A DNA stretch of 9,616 nt from IMG/VR virus record IMGVR_UViG_2778261570_000015; one strand, written 5' to 3'. Within the stretch, counting starts at the first letter, position 1, and each line of letters starts with the position of its first letter. The notes under the pieces are model-generated. The model was not told where the DNA came from. It did not search any database and worked only from the letters and a program-made list of their open reading frames with translations. This document shows, piece after piece, positions 2,968-9,616 of the stretch. Position numbers and translations under genes: made by a program. The DNA comes from a virus (taxonomy: Duplodnaviria > Heunggongvirae > Uroviricota > Caudoviricetes).

Positions 2968-3331
2968 AAATGTAGAAATGGCGCTTAGCTCCGCAATCGG
3001 AGAGCAGGTGGCAAAGATTGCTGGTGCTGTGTGGATTCATAACCTTCATTCTACTGGTGAAGAGAAAATGGCAATTCAGACGCCAGAGGGACGCACCATT
3101 ACTACATCTCTGAAGCCGTCAGATGTTTGTGATCTGATTTGCGCATTCATGTACCCAGCAATGAGGACTGTCCACGGCGATAAGTGGAAACTTGCGACAA
3201 CCGCTGAATTTGATATGTGGCTAAACAATGATGGCATGCTGACTGATTACGGAATAACCAAGTGGCAGATGCTAGTTAGCCATATCGCAAACGCTATAGA
3301 CCACGTGGGGTACGGTGATGCGAAACATTGA
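2960..3331 (+). CDS. Hypothetical protein, 123 aa
   Basis: ATG 2960 overlaps the previous stop; GGGAGG upstream. Track ORF. Its 3' end overlaps the primase start by 14 nt. Confidence 0.65.
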   Translation: MRENVEMALSSAIGEQVAKIAGAVWIHNLHSTGEEKMAIQTPEGRTITTSLKPSDVCDLICAFMYPAMRTVHGDKWKLATTAEFDMWLNNDGMLTDYGITKWQMLVSHIANAIDHVGYGDAKH

Positions 3332-6074
3332 TCTTATCCGTCAGGTTATCAGTGCGTCTGAAAACAACTGGCCTCATGTGCTGGGCTGCCTGAACATAAA
3401 TGTCCCTGACTCTCCGCGCCGTCATGCTCCCTGCCCTGCATGTGGGGGCAAAGATCGATTCCGGTTCGATGACAACGGGCGCGGTAGCTTCATCTGTAAT
3501 CAGTGCGGCGCTGGTGATGGGCTGGATTTAATTAAACGCGTAAATAACTGCGACACAACAGAGGCGGCGCTTCTTGCCGCTGATGTTCTGGGTATTGATT
3601 ACCGGACAACGGAAACACCAGAAGCCACCAGCCAGAAACGGGAACAACTGGAAACCGAGCGCCAGCGACGCGAACAGGAGCGCCTGAAAAGGGCAGAGAA
3701 GGACGAACAACAAAGACGGGATACGTTTTCCCGTCAGTTTGATGACATGCGCAGAAAGGCTGTAAACGGCAAATCTGATTATCTGGTTGCGAAAGGGGTA
3801 GGTGATTTTACATTCCCCGTGTTGCCCGATGGATCTCTGTTGCTGGCGCTGGTGGATAAATCCGGCGCAGTAACAGCAGCACAGACTATTACCTCACATG
3901 GTGAAAAAAGACTCCTGACAGGTTCAGCAAAGCGAGGGGCATATCACGCCATAAACGCACCAGAAACAACACAGAGCATCTTAATCGCAGAAGGGCTGGC
4001 AACGGCATTATCTGCCCATTTAATGCGTCCAGAGGCGCTGACAGTGGCGGCGATTGATGCCGGGAACCTGTTATATGTCGCCCAGGTACTGCGGGATAAA
4101 TTTCCTTCAGCACAAATCATCATTGCTGCGGATAACGACCACAGCGAAGGAAGACAAAACACGGGGAGAATAGCAGCAGAAAAAGCAGCTTTATCTGTTT
4201 CTGGATGGGTGGCATTACCCCCGACAGATCACAAAGCAGACTGGAATGATTACCACCAAAAACACGGTATTAAATGCGCCACAGAAGCGTTCAATAAGTC
4301 AATGTACCAACCACAGGGTAATGGCGTGAAACAGGAGCCACAGACCATTGAGGGAAGCGATTTTAAGGTTATGGATACCGATCCACTGAAACCAAGAATA
4401 GAAAGCCGCGAGGATGGTATTTATTGGGTATCTCCGAGAGCTGACAGCCAGAGTGGAGAAATCATCAATAACGAAAGCTGGTTATGTTCTCCGTTAAGCG
4501 TTATCGGTACTGGCAGAGACGATAAAGACCAGTATCTCATTCTTCGCTGGCTGTCGTTTGGTTCTGAAACGCCGACAACCGCTGCCATTCCACTGGCTGA
4601 TATTGGTGAACGTGAAGGATGGCGCACACTTAAAGCTGGTGGGGTAAATGTCACGACCAAAAGCAGCCTCAGAGCAATACTGGCAGACTGGCTACAACGC
4701 AGTGGCTCTCGTGAATTGTGGCGTGTTGCTCATGCCACTGGCTGGCAATGCGGAGCGTACATCATGCCTGATGGGGAAATCATCGGAACACCTGAAAATC
4801 CTGTGCTGTTCAGCGGGAGAAGCTCAGCCGCAGCCGGATATACCGTCTCAGGGAGCGCGAAAAGCTGGCGTGATAACGTGGCGCGTCTGGCCTTTGGTAA
4901 CTATTCAATGATGACCGGGATCGGCGCAGCACTGGCAGCGCCATTGATTGGGCTGGTGGGCGCTGACGGGTTCGGCATTCATTTCTATGAGCAGTCGAGC
5001 GCAGGTAAGACCACCACGGCAAACGTGGCGAGCAGCTTATACGGCAACCCTGATTTACTGCGGCTGACGTGGTACGGAACCGCGCTGGGGCTGGCAAATG
5101 AGGCCGCCGCCCACAATGACGGACTAATGCCGCTTGATGAAGTTGGTCAGGGCGCTGATCCTGTCAGCGTTTCACAGTCTGCCTATGCGTTATTTAACGG
5201 TGTAGGGAAACTGCAAGGCGCTAAAGATGGTGGAAACCGGGATCTAAAACGCTGGCGTACAGTGGCAATCAGCACCGGAGAAATGGATTTAGAAACATTT
5301 ATCGCTACTTCCGGGCGAAAAACCAAAGCCGGGCAACTGGTGCGACTGCTGAATATTCCGTTGAGTAAAGCAGTACGCTTTCACGATTACCAGAACGGAA
5401 AACAGCACGCAGACGCACTGAAAGACGCTTACCAGCATCACCACGGCGCGTCCGGGCGTGAGTGGATTAAATGGCTGGCAGACCACCAGCAACAGGCTAT
5501 TAAAACCGTTCGTGACTGCGAAAGCAGATGGAGAAGCCTGATCCCATCCGATTATGGTGAGCAGGTTCACCGTGTAGCCGCGCGATTTGCCATTCTGGAG
5601 GCCGCATTGTTGTTAGGCGAGGTTGTAACAGGCTGGGATGCTCAGACATGCCGTGATGCGATACAGCACAGCTATAACGCATGGTTGCGCGAGTTCGGCA
5701 CAGGTAACAAAGAGCATCAGCAGATTATTGAACAAACGGAGGCATTTCTTAATGCCTATGGGCTTAGCCGTTTTGCACCATTTCCATACAGCCCGGCAGA
5801 TTTGCCCATCAAAGATTTAGCCGGATACCGTCAGCGTGGAGAACATGACGAAAGCCCAATGATTTTCTACACATTCCCGGCCACATTTGAAAAGGAGATC
5901 GCATGTGGTTTCAACGCAAAACAGTTTGCTGAAGTGTTGAAAAAAGCCGGGATGCTAACCCCACCAAACAGCGGTCGTGGATACCAAAGAAAATCACCAC
6001 GTATTCAGGGACGACAAATAAACGTTTATGTACTCAATTACCAGCCAGGAGATTATAACTCATCTGAAGAATGA
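3318..6074 (+). CDS. DNA primase-helicase (replication initiator), about 918 aa: N-terminal zinc ribbon, TOPRIM primase core, P-loop NTPase domain (phage P4 alpha-like / DUF927-like architecture)
   Basis: Zinc ribbon CPACGGKDRFRFDD...CNQCG (about 3420-3524). TOPRIM signatures IAEG and AADNDHSEGR (about 3972-4244). Walker A-like SSAGKTT and Walker B-like LMPLDEVGQ (about 4980-5150). Start ATG 3318 (GGGG at 3307-3310); the track's GTG 3315 is too close to the SD. Confidence 0.9.
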   Translation: MRNIDLIRQVISASENNWPHVLGCLNINVPDSPRRHAPCPACGGKDRFRFDDNGRGSFICNQCGAGDGLDLIKRVNNCDTTEAALLAADVLGIDYRTTETPEATSQKREQLETERQRREQERLKRAEKDEQQRRDTFSRQFDDMRRKAVNGKSDYLVAKGVGDFTFPVLPDGSLLLALVDKSGAVTAAQTITSHGEKRLLTGSAKRGAYHAINAPETTQSILIAEGLATALSAHLMRPEALTVAAIDAGNLLYVAQVLRDKFPSAQIIIAADNDHSEGRQNTGRIAAEKAALSVSGWVALPPTDHKADWNDYHQKHGIKCATEAFNKSMYQPQGNGVKQEPQTIEGSDFKVMDTDPLKPRIESREDGIYWVSPRADSQSGEIINNESWLCSPLSVIGTGRDDKDQYLILRWLSFGSETPTTAAIPLADIGEREGWRTLKAGGVNVTTKSSLRAILADWLQRSGSRELWRVAHATGWQCGAYIMPDGEIIGTPENPVLFSGRSSAAAGYTVSGSAKSWRDNVARLAFGNYSMMTGIGAALAAPLIGLVGADGFGIHFYEQSSAGKTTTANVASSLYGNPDLLRLTWYGTALGLANEAAAHNDGLMPLDEVGQGADPVSVSQSAYALFNGVGKLQGAKDGGNRDLKRWRTVAISTGEMDLETFIATSGRKTKAGQLVRLLNIPLSKAVRFHDYQNGKQHADALKDAYQHHHGASGREWIKWLADHQQQAIKTVRDCESRWRSLIPSDYGEQVHRVAARFAILEAALLLGEVVTGWDAQTCRDAIQHSYNAWLREFGTGNKEHQQIIEQTEAFLNAYGLSRFAPFPYSPADLPIKDLAGYRQRGEHDESPMIFYTFPATFEKEIACGFNAKQFAEVLKKAGMLTPPNSGRGYQRKSPRIQGRQINVYVLNYQPGDYNSSEE

Positions 6075-6097
6075 GCTTCTTCATGTGCGTAGAAAAG

Positions 6098-6126
6098 GTG
6101 TTGGTTCAGTTGGTTCAGTTGGTTCA
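6098..6126 (+). repeat. Three tandem direct iterons GTTGGTTCA (first copy extended to GTGTTGGTTCA)
   Basis: Copies at 6098-6108, 6109-6117 and 6118-6126, read directly from the sequence. Confidence 0.7.
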
Positions 6127-6168
6127 ATTTGTAAAGAGTATTGTTTTATAAGGATTTTATTCTTTTTA

Positions 6169-6212
6169 TTGAACCAACACTGAACCAACAACACGGTATT
6201 TTGAACCAACAC
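6169..6212 (+). repeat. Three inverted-orientation iterons TGAACCAAC(AC), reverse complement of the upstream iterons
   Basis: Copies at 6169-6180, 6180-6191 and 6201-6212; centre spacing about 11 and 20-21 bp, roughly one and two helical turns. Confidence 0.7.
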
Positions 6213-6260
6213 AATGTGACTGAATTGATGCGCACAACACCTGGCTGGCATCAGAGAGTG

Positions 6261-6281
6261 TTTTACGAGACTTTCGTAAAA
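6261..6281 (+). promoter_or_regulatory. Palindromic operator-like site O1: TTTTACGA-N5-TCGTAAAA (core TACGA-N5-TCGTA)
   Basis: 8-bp perfect inverted arms at 6261-6268 and 6274-6281. Confidence 0.45.
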
Positions 6282-6318
6282 TCCTGTGTACAAGGGCGTG
6301 ACGTTTTTGAAAGTGAGC

Positions 6319-6337
6319 ACTACGAAATTTTCGTAGT
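6319..6337 (+). promoter_or_regulatory. Palindromic operator-like site O2: ACTACGAAA-T-TTTCGTAGT (core TACGA-N5-TCGTA)
   Basis: 9-bp perfect inverted arms at 6319-6327 and 6329-6337; same core and spacing as O1, 57 bp downstream. Confidence 0.45.
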
Positions 6338-6480
6338 TCAGAAAACAGCCTCTGAGAAGTTGTTATGCCTGTTCAGCAAACCATCCGCATAGCTGATCGC
6401 GAATCAAATTACCAATGGAGCCAGAAGCAAGGGCAGAACTGAAAAGCGCCTGCCGTGAAGAGTAATGCGACACCATAAAT

Positions 6481-6504
6481 ATAGTTTTTAGAGTCCATAA
6501 AAAA
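6481..6504 (+). repeat. Direct repeat copy 2 (AGTTTT-NN-GAGTCCATAAAAAA)
   Basis: See copy 1; lies 27 bp upstream of the 6531-6564 terminator. Confidence 0.6.
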
Positions 6505-6530
6505 CCTGTCAAAACCTGACACACAGAACG

Positions 6531-6564
6531 ATGCCACCAGCTACTGAGCGGTGGCATTTTTTTG
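6531..6564 (+). terminator. Rho-independent terminator, + strand
   Basis: ATGCCACC (6531-6538) pairs with GGTGGCAT (6550-6557), 11-nt loop, then TTTTTTT (6558-6564). No T-tract on the opposite strand, so unidirectional. Confidence 0.65.
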
Positions 6565-6584
6565 TGCTATTTGTTTCATATTTT

Positions 6585-6632
6585 GCAATTACGATGATGA
6601 ATATTGCGATTTGTGAAACTATAATAACTGTT
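6585..6632 (+). promoter_or_regulatory. Promoter candidate for the downstream operon; -10 TATAAT at 6620-6625
   Basis: Perfect TATAAT 34 bp upstream of the SD of the 6659 ORF; weak -35 (ATGAAT, 17-bp spacer); AT-rich upstream region. Confidence 0.4.
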
Positions 6633-6658
6633 GTTTTATACAGTTCTAAGGGGGCGTT

Positions 6659-6820
6659 ATGGCTATTTCAGTAAAGCCGGTATTGATAAGTGAGAAGCAA
6701 ATGGAAGCGATAAAGAAAATTCAGGAAGAGCAGCGTAAAAAATCAGGAATTGGAGTAGCGCCAACTCTGCATGAAATTGCACGAGGGTTAATAGATAAGG
6801 CGCTGGCAGGCTGTATGTGA
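6659..6820 (+). CDS. Small 53-aa protein, possible ribbon-helix-helix (CopG/Arc/MetJ-like) DNA-binding regulator; absent from the ORF track
   Basis: ATG 6659 preceded by AAGGGGG (6648-6654); stop TGA 6818-6820. Translation MAISVKPVLISEKQMEAIKKIQEEQRKKSGIGVAPTLHEIARGLIDKALAGCM has a short N-terminal beta-strand-like segment followed by two predicted helices. Next gene starts 16 nt downstream. Confidence 0.5.
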   Translation: MAISVKPVLISEKQMEAIKKIQEEQRKKSGIGVAPTLHEIARGLIDKALAGCM

Positions 6821-6836
6821 AAATGGATGGCATCGC

Positions 6837-7298
6837 ATGGAACTAAAATTTATTGATAACCCTGTGCGATTACAGGCCTTTCTTAACGAGCCAGGCAATA
6901 CCGAAAATATTGTTGAGCCGGGGCACACGTACTACATCAAGCCTGATGCGGTATATCTCGGCATCTACGAAGGATTAGTGCTGGCTGGCGTTCATGAAGT
7001 GCGTAACTTCTGGCATAGCGTTGTTGAATGCCATGCGGTGTACGACCCCGGATTCCGTGGTGAATATGCACTGCAAGGACATCGATTATTCTGCAAATGG
7101 CTTCTCGAAAACTCACCATTCCTTAACAGCATCACTATGGTTCCTGACACCACGAAATACGGACGGGCAATTATCCGTTTGCTTGGCGCTACCCGTGTTG
7201 GTCACCTTGATGATGCTTATATCAGATGTGGTAAACCCGTCGGCGTAACGCTTTATCAGTTAACTCGGCAACAATATAAGGAATTCAGCGAATGTTAA
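6837..7298 (+). CDS. Hypothetical protein, 153 aa
   Basis: Track ORF; ATG 6837 with GGATGG upstream; stop overlaps the next start. No family recognised. Confidence 0.7.
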   Translation: MELKFIDNPVRLQAFLNEPGNTENIVEPGHTYYIKPDAVYLGIYEGLVLAGVHEVRNFWHSVVECHAVYDPGFRGEYALQGHRLFCKWLLENSPFLNSITMVPDTTKYGRAIIRLLGATRVGHLDDAYIRCGKPVGVTLYQLTRQQYKEFSEC

Positions 7299-7969
7299 TT
7301 ACCCATATAGCTCATAAACATCTCAATCGTGCCGTATACGAAAAAGGCGGTGATGGTGGTGCCTCTAAAGCTCAGGCGAAGGCCCAGCAGCAGGCAATTG
7401 ATTTGCAGCGCGAGCAGTGGAATACGGTGATGAATAATCTCAAGCCGTATGCAGAAGTCGGATTGCCTGCTTTACAACAACTACAAGGACTGATGACTCT
7501 GGAAGGGCAGAATAAAGCCGCGAATGATTTCTTTGGTTCTGGTTTATATAAAACACAGGCAGATCAGGCCCGTTATCAGAACCTTGTCTCAGCAGAAGCT
7601 ACCGGGGGGCTTGGCTCAACAGCTACCAGTAACCAGTTATCTTCCATTGCGCCCATGCTTTATAACAATTGGCTTAGTGGGCAAATGCAAAATTATGGAA
7701 ACCTGCTAAATGTCGGGATGAATGCGGCATCAGGGCAGGCAACGGCAGGGCAAAACTACGCCAATAATACCGGACAACTCTTGCAGGGGCTTGGCGCTAT
7801 TCGTGCAGGTCAGGCGCAGCAGCCATCCAGTCTTGCGCGTGGTATTGGTGGGGCAGCATCAGGCGCTTTAGCGGGTGCGCAACTTGGTTCCGTTGTTCCT
7901 GGAATAGGAACTGCGGCCGGCGCTATTGGTGGTGGGCTTATTGGTCTTGTTGGGGGGCTTGGATTCTAA
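7292..7969 (+). CDS. Ala/Gln/Gly-rich protein, 225 aa, with a glycine-zipper hydrophobic C-terminus; putative internal-virion/ejection-type protein
   Basis: Track ORF; start overlaps the previous stop; AAGGAA upstream. Low-complexity AQ-rich N-terminal part; C-terminus GIGTAAGAIGGGLIGLVGGLGF. Composition resembles podovirus internal core proteins; not verified by homology. Confidence 0.65.
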   Translation: MLITHIAHKHLNRAVYEKGGDGGASKAQAKAQQQAIDLQREQWNTVMNNLKPYAEVGLPALQQLQGLMTLEGQNKAANDFFGSGLYKTQADQARYQNLVSAEATGGLGSTATSNQLSSIAPMLYNNWLSGQMQNYGNLLNVGMNAASGQATAGQNYANNTGQLLQGLGAIRAGQAQQPSSLARGIGGAASGALAGAQLGSVVPGIGTAAGAIGGGLIGLVGGLGF

Positions 7970-9288
7970 TGGCGACATGGCAACTTGGCGGGCTGCCTAG
8001 CATGGCACCGCAAAATGATAATGCTCCTCGTTCTTCCGTTCCTCAGCCTGTGCAGTATCAGCAGCAGCCAAACGTAGGTTTAATGGCGCTACAGGGGCTA
8101 AGAGGCGTTGCTGAGATTAATCAGCAGGCGCAAATTTCCCAGCAGCTAAAAGAATATCAGGCACGGTTGGGTAGTGCGGTAGCTAATAATGATCGTGTTG
8201 GCGTGCAGAAGTTAATGGCCCAGTATCCCCAGTTTATGGCTGATTCTCAAAAACAGATGGGATTCATTGATGCTGAGCAAAATCGGCAGACCGCTGACGC
8301 TGCCATGAATCTGCGTCTTGCGTCACAAACTGGAGATCCACTGACCATGCAGAAGGCCATTCAGCAGGCAAATCCAGTATTACAGCGATTTGGTCTTCCT
8401 GCTGAAGAGGTTTATCAGTCTTGGCAGAATGACCCACAGGAATTCAACAGAATCACTGACCTCATCCACCTCCATGCTGATCCAAATAGTTACTTTAGTG
8501 TTCAAGAGAAGCAGCAAGGGCAGAGTATTGCACAGCAGAACGCAGATACATCTGCATATAATGCTCAGGTTAATGCGGAGCAGGGTAATCGGCGGCTCGA
8601 TATGGAGCAGTTCAAAGTCCTATCCGATAACCAACTACGCACGAGAGAAATGGTTCTGAAAGCACGACTTGGACGTGCTCAAAATGACATCGAGAGAGAC
8701 AAGCTCAATGCTGAACTGAGCAAGGTACAGCAGGCGAAAGTGGAGAAGATGAACGATAAAATTAATACTGTTGCAGGTAATATCGACTCCTTGAACTCTG
8801 CGCTTGAAGTGGGTCATGAACTGGCGGGAATTGTAGGGAAACATCCTTCGGCCGTTACCCGTTCGCAGAACTATAACCCCCTGACGCTGGGGTTTGGATT
8901 CCTCCCTGATGTAGCAGAAGACACACGAAGCCTACGCGCCAAAGCTGATGAATACAACCTAAAGGTTATTCTGCCTAGCCTAAAAGGTACTTTTGGCTCT
9001 AACCCAACCGAAGGGGAAAGGGCTGCCCTTATGCAATCTCAAAATGGCATTAAGTCAGCAACCAGCAATGAGGCATTTTTGCGAGAGTTGAATAAAGCGC
9101 AGGACGTAATTATTCGAATGCAGAAACGACAGATTGCCGGGCTCGGTATTCCTGTAACCAAATCTAAGGACGAAGAAACTGATACCAAAATGCTGTTGCA
9201 GGATCCTTCACTGGTTAAGGATTATGTGACCGCACATGGCTATCTGCCGGAAAGTTACTATCAGGCAAAACTTAAGGGATGGCAATGA
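7969..9288 (+). CDS. Gln/Ala-rich protein, 439 aa; putative internal-virion/ejection-type protein
   Basis: Track ORF; TAATG overlap with the previous gene and TGA overlap with the next. Q/A-rich, coiled-coil-like composition. Confidence 0.7.
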   Translation: MATWQLGGLPSMAPQNDNAPRSSVPQPVQYQQQPNVGLMALQGLRGVAEINQQAQISQQLKEYQARLGSAVANNDRVGVQKLMAQYPQFMADSQKQMGFIDAEQNRQTADAAMNLRLASQTGDPLTMQKAIQQANPVLQRFGLPAEEVYQSWQNDPQEFNRITDLIHLHADPNSYFSVQEKQQGQSIAQQNADTSAYNAQVNAEQGNRRLDMEQFKVLSDNQLRTREMVLKARLGRAQNDIERDKLNAELSKVQQAKVEKMNDKINTVAGNIDSLNSALEVGHELAGIVGKHPSAVTRSQNYNPLTLGFGFLPDVAEDTRSLRAKADEYNLKVILPSLKGTFGSNPTEGERAALMQSQNGIKSATSNEAFLRELNKAQDVIIRMQKRQIAGLGIPVTKSKDEETDTKMLLQDPSLVKDYVTAHGYLPESYYQAKLKGWQ

Positions 9289-9616
9289 TGGCACAACTGA
9301 CAGAAAAACAGAAAGCCTATTCCCGTCATCTCGATGAAAAATATGGTTTCCCATCAGGGACGATGGAAACATTAGTTGGCAATGAATCTAGTGGTAACGG
9401 AAGTGCCGAGTCACCGAAAGGAGCTAGAGGATTTGCTCAACTGATGCCCTCAGTAATGAGTGATGCTGGTTATCGTGGAACAGATCCGCGCTCACTGCCA
9501 TTTGAAAAGCAAATGGATATCGCAGCAAACCATCTCAATAAAGGAATGAAGCGATTTGGTGTGAACCGCCCCGGGTTTCCTGGAGAGTGTTTTATCTGTG
9601 AACTCAGGCTGCCAGA
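9285..9616 (+). CDS. Lytic transglycosylase (SLT) domain protein, N-terminal fragment; gene continues beyond the window
   Basis: ATG 9285 with AAGGGATGG upstream, overlapping the previous stop. Translation contains GNESSGNGSAESPKGARGFAQLMP, matching the SLT catalytic signature (ES...A.S..GA.G..Q), at the same N-terminal position as in T7 gp16-type internal virion protein D. Open to the end of the window. Confidence 0.7.
   Translation, partial: MMAQLTEKQKAYSRHLDEKYGFPSGTMETLVGNESSGNGSAESPKGARGFAQLMPSVMSDAGYRGTDPRSLPFEKQMDIAANHLNKGMKRFGVNRPGFPGECFICELRLP

Follow-up and report, generated by a model that had tools for sequence, protein, structure and literature searches.

A candidate helper packaging-site copy and an intrinsic terminator between the origin and late promoter of an Escherichia coli phage-inducible chromosomal island

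Introduction

What does a phage satellite carry between its replication origin and its late-gene promoter? The question is raised by an 85-nt stretch (positions 6480-6564) of the virus record IMGVR_UViG_2778261570_000015, whose full 9,616 nt were analysed and are called the window here. The stretch sits at the boundary of the replication and late zones, between the origin and the late promoter, of what is, judged by its gene content, a Gram-negative phage-inducible chromosomal island (PICI), a parasite of E. coli phages. An initial annotation proposed that it encodes an independent regulatory RNA of about 70-85 nt, which would start near a TATAGT hexamer and end at an intrinsic terminator; as a fallback, the terminator would simply end the primase operon. 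We found that the stretch holds one copy of a 22-nt repeat that the island shares with the small-terminase gene (terS) of CUS-3-type phages, followed by a terminator that is conserved in position. We estimate a probability of roughly 60% that these are two independent signals, namely a copy of a helper packaging (pac) site located in terS and an intrinsic terminator.

Results

A 22-nt repeat of the island matches terS of CUS-3-type phages

The repeat, AGTTTTYRGAGTCCATAAAAAA, occurs at 6483-6504 (copy 2) and 607-628 (copy 1), with 91% identity between the copies. The 14-nt segment GAGTCCATAAAAAA at 6491-6504, present as the initial annotation described it, has a second exact copy at 615-628. 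A relaxed pattern, TTTNNNSAGKCCNTAAAA, matches twice in the window, where 0.01 matches are expected. The 18.7-kb locus that holds the island contains two exact copies and one with a single mismatch, all on the + strand. This third, co-oriented copy, ATTACTCAGTCCATAAAA, lies upstream of the window in an antA/antB gene (L001 2475-2492).

An exact search of IMG/VR with the 14-mer returned at least 120 loci. Among the matches listed, besides the island copies, 48 lie inside homologues of the terminase small subunit (TerS), always in the same frame and at the same position, in the context ...TINKWKLDYP(E/K)F(S/L/F)ESIKKGKAVADAEV.... The motif falls within the N-terminal third of TerS, presumed to be the DNA-binding domain. 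Identity between island and phage extends over 22-24 nt and is lost abruptly on both sides. Copy 1 is the TCG allele of CUS-3 terS, identical over 24 nt, and copy 2 is the TTA allele of CUS-3-type terS found in other phages, such as L099 and L142. The 135-nt phage context matches 30 phage records, most of them from P22-like phages of E. coli and its relatives and most annotated as small terminase; four partial matches are Acinetobacter phages. Carriers of this terS include CUS-3, N7, phiv205-1, vB_EcoP-720R6 and the Klebsiella phage phiKp_30, most of them placed in Lederbergvirus, and its product matches PHROG 309, terminase small subunit, with E = 2e-68. The 40-kb genome of CUS-3 has a single match to the relaxed motif, in terS.

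The terS gene itself appears to be mosaic. In CUS-3 (L185 2396-2836), the C-terminal 38 residues of TerS are those of Sf6 gp1 (PDB 3HEF/4DYC) and the N-terminal part differs, and in many E. coli prophage terS genes the match is confined to the 3' ~90 nt. This pattern indicates that the N-terminal part has been swapped onto a common TerL-facing tail. Some records label CUS-3-type terS 'HNH homing endonuclease', which is probably an error.

Is the repeat simply a piece of protein-coding sequence in the island? Copy 2 is untranslated, because a TAG stands directly upstream in the E-S-I-K-K frame. Copy 1 is in frame within the open reading frame (ORF) 288-1355, where it reads E-F-S-E-S-I-K-K; we rejected this ORF as a TerS homologue, since the match is limited to the eight residues encoded by the motif. 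Copy 2 is conserved in most relatives of the locus. Variant islands have TTTTGCAACGCCGTAAAC or TTTTGTAGCGCCATAAAC in the same position, with an xCC xTA signature kept, and these variants may match other TerS subtypes. Another arrangement is seen at L011 2491-2560 (E. coli RMDEC465), which has a single motif copy whose left flank is that of copy 1 and whose right flank is that of copy 2; it lacks a complete terminator and belongs to a different element with DUF2213 and Panacea-domain genes. L011 looks like a recombinant between two direct repeats.

Synonymous positions of the motif are fixed in terS

We retrieved TerS homologues with the profile-derived peptide patterns ESIKKGK and [AMI]IFWLKN, which avoids ascertainment by the motif; an earlier sample was 99-100% identical and unusable for codon analysis. 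GAG TCC ATA AAA AA is exact in 17 of 18 ESIKKGK representatives (<90% nucleotide identity), and the Gly codon that follows varies freely. Homologues retrieved through FWLKN that have other residues here (ESVKK, DAIKS, QSLKS, QALKA, VSVKE and others) still use xCC xTA. At the motif, Ser is always TCC and Ala always GCC, Ile is ATA (97%), Val is GTA, and Leu is CTA or TTA. In a set of 42 representatives (<85% nucleotide identity), the two motif codons have a third-position conservation of 1.00 and 0.98 and the preceding TTT has 0.93, compared with 0.3-0.88 at all other conserved amino-acid columns; ATT or ATC is preferred at other Ile columns. Information per base is highest at TTT..(N6)..CC.TAAA. 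Because synonymous positions are fixed here, unlike at other conserved columns, the element must act at the nucleotide level. We read it as a nucleic-acid element embedded in the N-terminal third of terS.

A positionally conserved terminator closes the stretch

The strong intrinsic terminator that had been placed at 6531-6564 is real (6531-6563). Five of its eight stem pairs are GC, and a terminator scan also reports it. As RNA, 6480-6570 (91 nt) folds at -30.8 kcal/mol (z = -5.7; 0 of 200 shuffles equally stable), a fold dominated by the terminator. It is a + strand signal only, since no T-run follows the stem in the minus-strand sequence.

Relatives gathered through the downstream 53-aa gene from genomes, IMG/VR and metagenomes gave 42 distinct upstream sequences. 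A hairpin with a T-run of 6-8, starting 100-107 nt before the downstream ATG, is present in 39 of them. Five stem-loop types occur: GCCACC-long loop-GGTGGC, GCCACC-TGAAAG-GGTGGC, GGCCACC-TCT-GGTGGTC, CACCAC-TTCAGA-GTGGTG and GCCCTGCG-AAC-GCGGGGC. True compensatory changes are few because most stems share the GCCACC/GGTGGC core. On the 5' side of the terminator the relatives vary, with three primase types, differing origins and extra genes, and on the 3' side they are constant, with a dyad, TATAAT and CTGT-N8-ACAG. The terminator therefore travels with the late module.

These observations favour the fallback of the initial annotation, under which the terminator ends the primase operon. The terminator is an ordinary, functionally conserved one and most likely stops early/replication operon transcription before the separately controlled late promoter. 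It resembles the early-operon terminators of phages and satellites, in which a GC-rich hairpin and U-tract follow the last long gene and the origin, directly 5' of a separately regulated promoter. In vivo, termination at this site would end transcription from the Bro/immunity and replication operon and would keep read-through out of the late-zone promoter with its dyad operator and LexA box.

The repeat as a candidate packaging signal

How would these two signals serve the island? TerS proteins of the CUS-3 type would recognise the 22-nt terS sequence as their pac site, and the copies at 6483-6504 and 607-628 would recruit helper TerS/TerL, which would start headful packaging on replicated island DNA at the repeats. 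TerS binding and packaging initiation at the repeat are thus predicted from sequence identities, the synonymous-site constraint in terS and copy numbers; terminator structure and positional conservation support the second signal. Taken more widely, the element (core TTT-N6-KCC-NTA-AAA; GAGTCCATAAAAAAG in E. coli phages) would be the pac site of a very large TerS family, where it constrains codons, and a widespread family of PICIs in E. coli and Leclercia, which lack a terminase gene, would hijack P22-like helpers through two or three copies. We hold this wider proposal tentatively, at slightly short of even odds. The PHROG 309 small-terminase family is found by tblastn in 411 phage records, from phages of Vibrio, Acinetobacter, Riemerella, Lactococcus, enterobacteria and others.

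Several points weigh against a pac role. One pac site conserved over so broad a TerS family would be unusual, and we know of no experimentally defined pac site for CUS-3-type TerS. CFS3292-type islands do not have copy 2. The ejection proteins of the island share just 24-54% protein identity with those of CUS-3 itself. Finally, the motif contains a -1 frameshift heptamer, A_AAA_AAG, which at copy 1 is in frame in a long ORF, so that a translational role there is conceivable. A literature search gave no match to the exact motif string and nothing specific on CUS-3 pac.

The repeat could also be a functional nucleic-acid element other than pac: a translational signal, the binding site of another protein or a recombination linker. 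We consider this unlikely, although each version has something in its favour. A translational signal would combine the -1 slippery site with rare xTA codons and an out-of-frame TAA, and the heptamer is in frame both in terS and in ORF 288-1355. However, xCC xTA is fixed even where the heptamer is broken (AAA AGC, AAA AGA, AAG GCG), the Gly codon after the heptamer is free to vary, so that the -1 frame reads NAA after GGG and meets a stop only with GGT, and copy 2 is untranslated. As a binding site, copy 1 would occupy ~-54 to -41 of the isrK promoter, with AAAAAAGAG resembling a proximal UP element, and it does adjoin a plausible isrK promoter, TTGCCG-18-TATGGT. This would leave conservation inside the terS genes of unrelated hosts unexplained. 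A linker would suit the recombinant-like L011 and the mosaic breakpoints that cluster at 6425-6505, but a pure linker needs neither two or three co-oriented copies nor synonymous-site constraint in phages. A decayed terS fragment or recombination linker is likewise unlikely in view of the sharp boundaries, the multiple co-oriented copies and conservation in both E. coli and Leclercia.

Small-RNA readings of the stretch

Could the stretch still yield a small RNA? One way would be cleavage (at UAUAG|UUUUU, for instance) of the long early/replication transcript, to leave an RNA derived from the 3' untranslated region and stabilised by the terminator hairpin and U-tail. Upstream transcripts must end here, and the AU-rich segment, hairpin and U7 resemble what is generally known of Hfq-dependent 3'-end RNAs. 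Nevertheless, no single-stranded seed is conserved, and from the motif to the terminator the lineages have unrelated sequence. Complementarity to the proposed targets does not exceed that of shuffled sequences either. In RNAduplex comparisons with 780-960, 6626-6690 and the isrK region (660-760), 56%, 39% and 23% of dinucleotide shuffles do equally well. We regard such a processed RNA as improbable.

An independent RNA of 70-85 nt, starting a few bases past TATAGT and ending at the terminator, is in our view very improbable. The hexamer is present at 6480-6485 and has the A2 and T6 of a -10 element, xAxAGT is kept in relatives, and the strong terminator follows ~75 nt downstream; moreover, the analogous region at copy 1 precedes a real short terminated RNA, isrK. 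Yet the hexamer has no -35 element, no TG extension and no promoter call. A promoter scan found no sigma-70-like promoter on either strand at 5900-7000, but the same scan is blind to promoters with a weak -35, because it also missed the evident late promoter. The full TATAGT is not fixed among relatives, which have CAGAGT, TAGAGT or TATAGT at the position of copy 2, and the hexamer aligned at copy 1 is GTGAGT. The sole conserved block 5' of the hexamer, GAAGAGTAATGCGACACCATAAA, is displaced by 9 nt in Leclercia and is therefore not a -35 at fixed spacing. The conserved GAGUCCAUAAAAAA, near which the RNA was thought to start, belongs to the terS-identical repeat, so that the repeat explains both the AGT of the hexamer and the supposed 5' end. 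At copy 1, phage homology to isrK begins only at ~667, past the repeat. CFS3292-type islands keep the inverted repeat, terminator and promoter region, and in them the hexamer and motif are absent. Rfam 15, searched over the whole window at E <= 10, has no family at 6480-6564. An independent small-RNA gene is thus not supported by the sequence comparisons.

The TGTCA-N5-TGACA inverted repeat that had been assigned to this RNA exists, one base to the left of the 6508-6522 first given (Table 1). Its arms are invariant in all E. coli-type islands, even in those without the 22-nt repeat; Leclercia and other lineages lack it, and no covariation was seen. Several further readings were rejected. On the minus strand, a hairpin with a TTTTTT terminator, or TTGACA as a -35, is unconserved at copy 1 and in CFS3292-type and Leclercia islands, and a 30-aa hydrophobic ORF (MDSKNYIYGV...) has an unconserved start context and a conservation that the motif explains. 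A tiny + strand ORF, MRHHKYSF, encodes an unconserved peptide (MRLHK, MRHRK, and a 14-aa version in Leclercia). The motif and the inverted repeat match the CRP, IHF and DnaA-box consensus sequences poorly.

Layout of the island

Gram-negative PICIs are organised in four zones (PMC10111431): integration, Bro and immunity RNA, replication, and a late zone, the last with late genes captured from helpers. The window has these four zones, co-directional genes for an integrase (int), a putative alpA-like regulator (a small helix-turn-helix gene) and a primase (pri), and an origin 3' of pri, as judged from Rfam, Pfam and the RefSeq annotation of the identical locus in E. coli strain cq9. It is 100% identical to the chromosomal island of cq9 over a 651-nt query (6050-6700), and sequence matching at least 80% of 6440-6660 occurs in 483 of 5,426 complete E. 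coli genomes. The gene order begins with the integrase, the small helix-turn-helix regulator, AntA/AntB, DUF4222, an 'ash/Icd-like' ORF and small ORFs. It ends with the primase, the iteron origin, the stretch studied here, the promoter region, the 53-aa gene and P22-like gp14 (DUF2824), gp7, gp20 and gp16. Islands with other primases have other iterons in place of this origin. No terminase gene is annotated in the cq9 locus by RefSeq, and none was found among the window ORFs checked against Pfam.

Table 1. Positions of the features discussed in the window
Feature	Position	Strand	Remarks
Repeat copy 1, AGTTTTCGGAGTCCATAAAAAA	607..628	+	~40 nt 5' of isrK, inside 'ash family' ORF
Primase (zinc ribbon, Toprim, DUF927)	3315..6074	+	Pfam, RefSeq; last long annotated gene 5' of the terminator
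Iteron origin	6100..6213	.	Three direct GTTGGTTCA repeats, AT-rich spacer, inverted TGAACCAAC repeats; sequence reading
TATAGT hexamer	6480..6485	+	Last three bases (AGT) within the 22-nt repeat; promoter scan silent
Repeat copy 2, AGTTTTTAGAGTCCATAAAAAA	6483..6504	+	Repeat family D1; non-coding; candidate helper pac-site mimic
Inverted repeat TGTCA-AAACC-TGACA	6507..6521	+	5-bp hairpin in the fold
Rho-independent terminator	6531..6563	+	8-bp stem ATGCCACC/GGTGGCAT (6531-6538/6550-6557), inner 3-bp helix, T7 at 6557-6563
Late-zone promoter region	6574..6643	+	Dyad TTTCAT-N4-TGCAAT / ATTGCG-N4-GTGAAA (6574-6589, 6603-6618); TATAAT (6620-6625); LexA-box-like (6628-6643)
First late-zone gene, 53 aa	6659..6820	+	Anchor for gathering relatives

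The late zone (6837-9616) holds the P22-like gp14, gp7, gp20 and gp16 (ejection-protein) genes. The gp14-like gene shares 87.5% DNA identity with gp14 of vB_EcoP-720R6, a phage that has CUS-3-type terS. In strain cq9, gp16 is represented by a pseudogene, and other islands have an M41-peptidase-family gene in the late zone instead. The promoter is constant, and the late zone behind it resembles a slot for variable cargo. In that promoter, CTGTTGTTTTATACAG lies just 3' of a perfect TATAAT and agrees with the consensus of a LexA box, CTGT-N8-ACAG. Leclercia and other relatives retain both the TATAAT and the LexA box, and the dyad is retained even in Pantoea and Pectobacterium. This arrangement suggests that the late promoter may be under SOS control with a second operator, perhaps for the 53-aa protein, which has no match in Pfam or PHROG and might have a ribbon-helix-helix look.

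Upstream of the stretch, the region 6261-6408 holds the palindromes TTTTACGA/TCGTAAAA (6261-6281) and CTACGAAATTTTCGTAG (6320-6336), followed by a short ORF with its ATG at 6365. A TGA truncates this ORF to 26 aa; other islands have TGG there. A 33-nt stretch that includes CTACGAAATTTTCGTAG is identical in the Lederbergvirus phiKp_30 (L002 ~3990-4112), itself a carrier of CUS-3-type terS, and may be a shared operator or promoter. The genes between origin and motif differ between islands, with 152 aa, 93 aa or none (L010 1078-1536; L012 1245-1526). Within the region 6425-6478, a block at 6457-6479 is conserved, and two annotated upstream ORFs end inside it in different frames. Since both ORFs read the same DNA in different frames, the block is conserved for a non-coding reason.

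The immunity RNAs of the island

A P4-type RNA regulator, which had been thought conceivable in the stretch, does exist in the island, but at 669-896. Rfam identifies isrK, a seqA-like partner, at 669-746 (69 bits) and a C4/CI-type antisense RNA at 809-896 (81 bits), both above the gathering score. This pair is the island's own copy of the P4 CI / P1 C4 immunity RNA with seqA/isrK. Both RNA genes are enclosed by the 355-aa ORF annotated as 'ash family protein' (288-1355), which starts 7 nt before the DUF4222 stop, similar to the arrangement of P4 eta (PMC10111431). The C4 loop CCUUGUAC is complementary to GUACAAGGAGG, which forms the ribosome-binding site for an ATG at position 951 (region 931-953), a pairing that fits P1-type c4 control of an icd-like gene. 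We rejected action of the C4 loop on the late-gene ribosome-binding site, where sequence reading found no GUACAAGG-like site.

Discussion

How does the proposed arrangement compare with known packaging systems? In the PLE satellite of the Vibrio cholerae phage ICP1, transduction requires a 14-bp core that is identical to part of ICP1 pac and lies between the origin and a gene cluster further downstream (PMC11417361). In both PLE and the island, the satellite core exactly matches a helper sequence (over 14 bp in PLE, and over 14 bp, extending to 22-24 nt, in the island), lies between the satellite origin and a late-expressed cluster, and is conserved among satellites. The two also differ. The helper pac of PLE is intergenic, whereas the helper sequence matched by the island is inside terS. 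The PLE mimic acts with Gpi and GpsA/B, whereas the island has two or three copies and no packaging proteins are evident. Moreover, the transduction requirement of PLE is demonstrated, whereas the pac role in the island is deduced from sequence.

A site inside terS has a precedent in P22, in which gene 3, the terS of this phage, contains the 22-bp pac (PMC8022706, citing Wu 2002 and Leavitt 2013). Like the sites of P22 and Sf6, the candidate site described here lies within the small-terminase gene of a headful phage of the P22-like type, and it falls in the N-terminal third of terS, as is reported for P22 and Sf6; unlike in P22, the pac status of the CUS-3-type site is deduced from synonymous-site constraint rather than from mapping. 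The motif itself is presumably unrelated in sequence to P22 pac. In Sf6, the terS segment coding for the DNA-binding domain reportedly contains pac, an arrangement that is said to let domain and site move together. The composition of CUS-3 TerS fits such modularity of domain and site.

Other satellites depend on helper cos sites. P4, SaPIbov5 and E. coli PICIs such as EcCICFT073 carry the packaging signal of their helper without a terminase specificity of their own. Their signals are cos sites for lambda- or P2-type terminases, whereas the signal of the island would be a pac site for a P22-like podophage. Satellites that mimic the packaging sites of their helpers are a known class, and the island probably belongs to it.

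Two practical points follow. In annotation, a lone -10-like hexamer followed by a terminator is insufficient for calling a small RNA, and, if the packaging reading is true, synonymous-site invariance in terS could be used for pac-site prediction. To our knowledge, pac sites are hard to find and are known for few headful phages. If the packaging reading is true, a 15-22-nt element would give hundreds of phages a defined packaging signal in one step and would provide a short portable tag that makes DNA transducible by P22-like phages. It would also be the first case of pac-type packaging mimicry in Gram-negative PICIs and would explain how a family of islands without a terminase is packaged.

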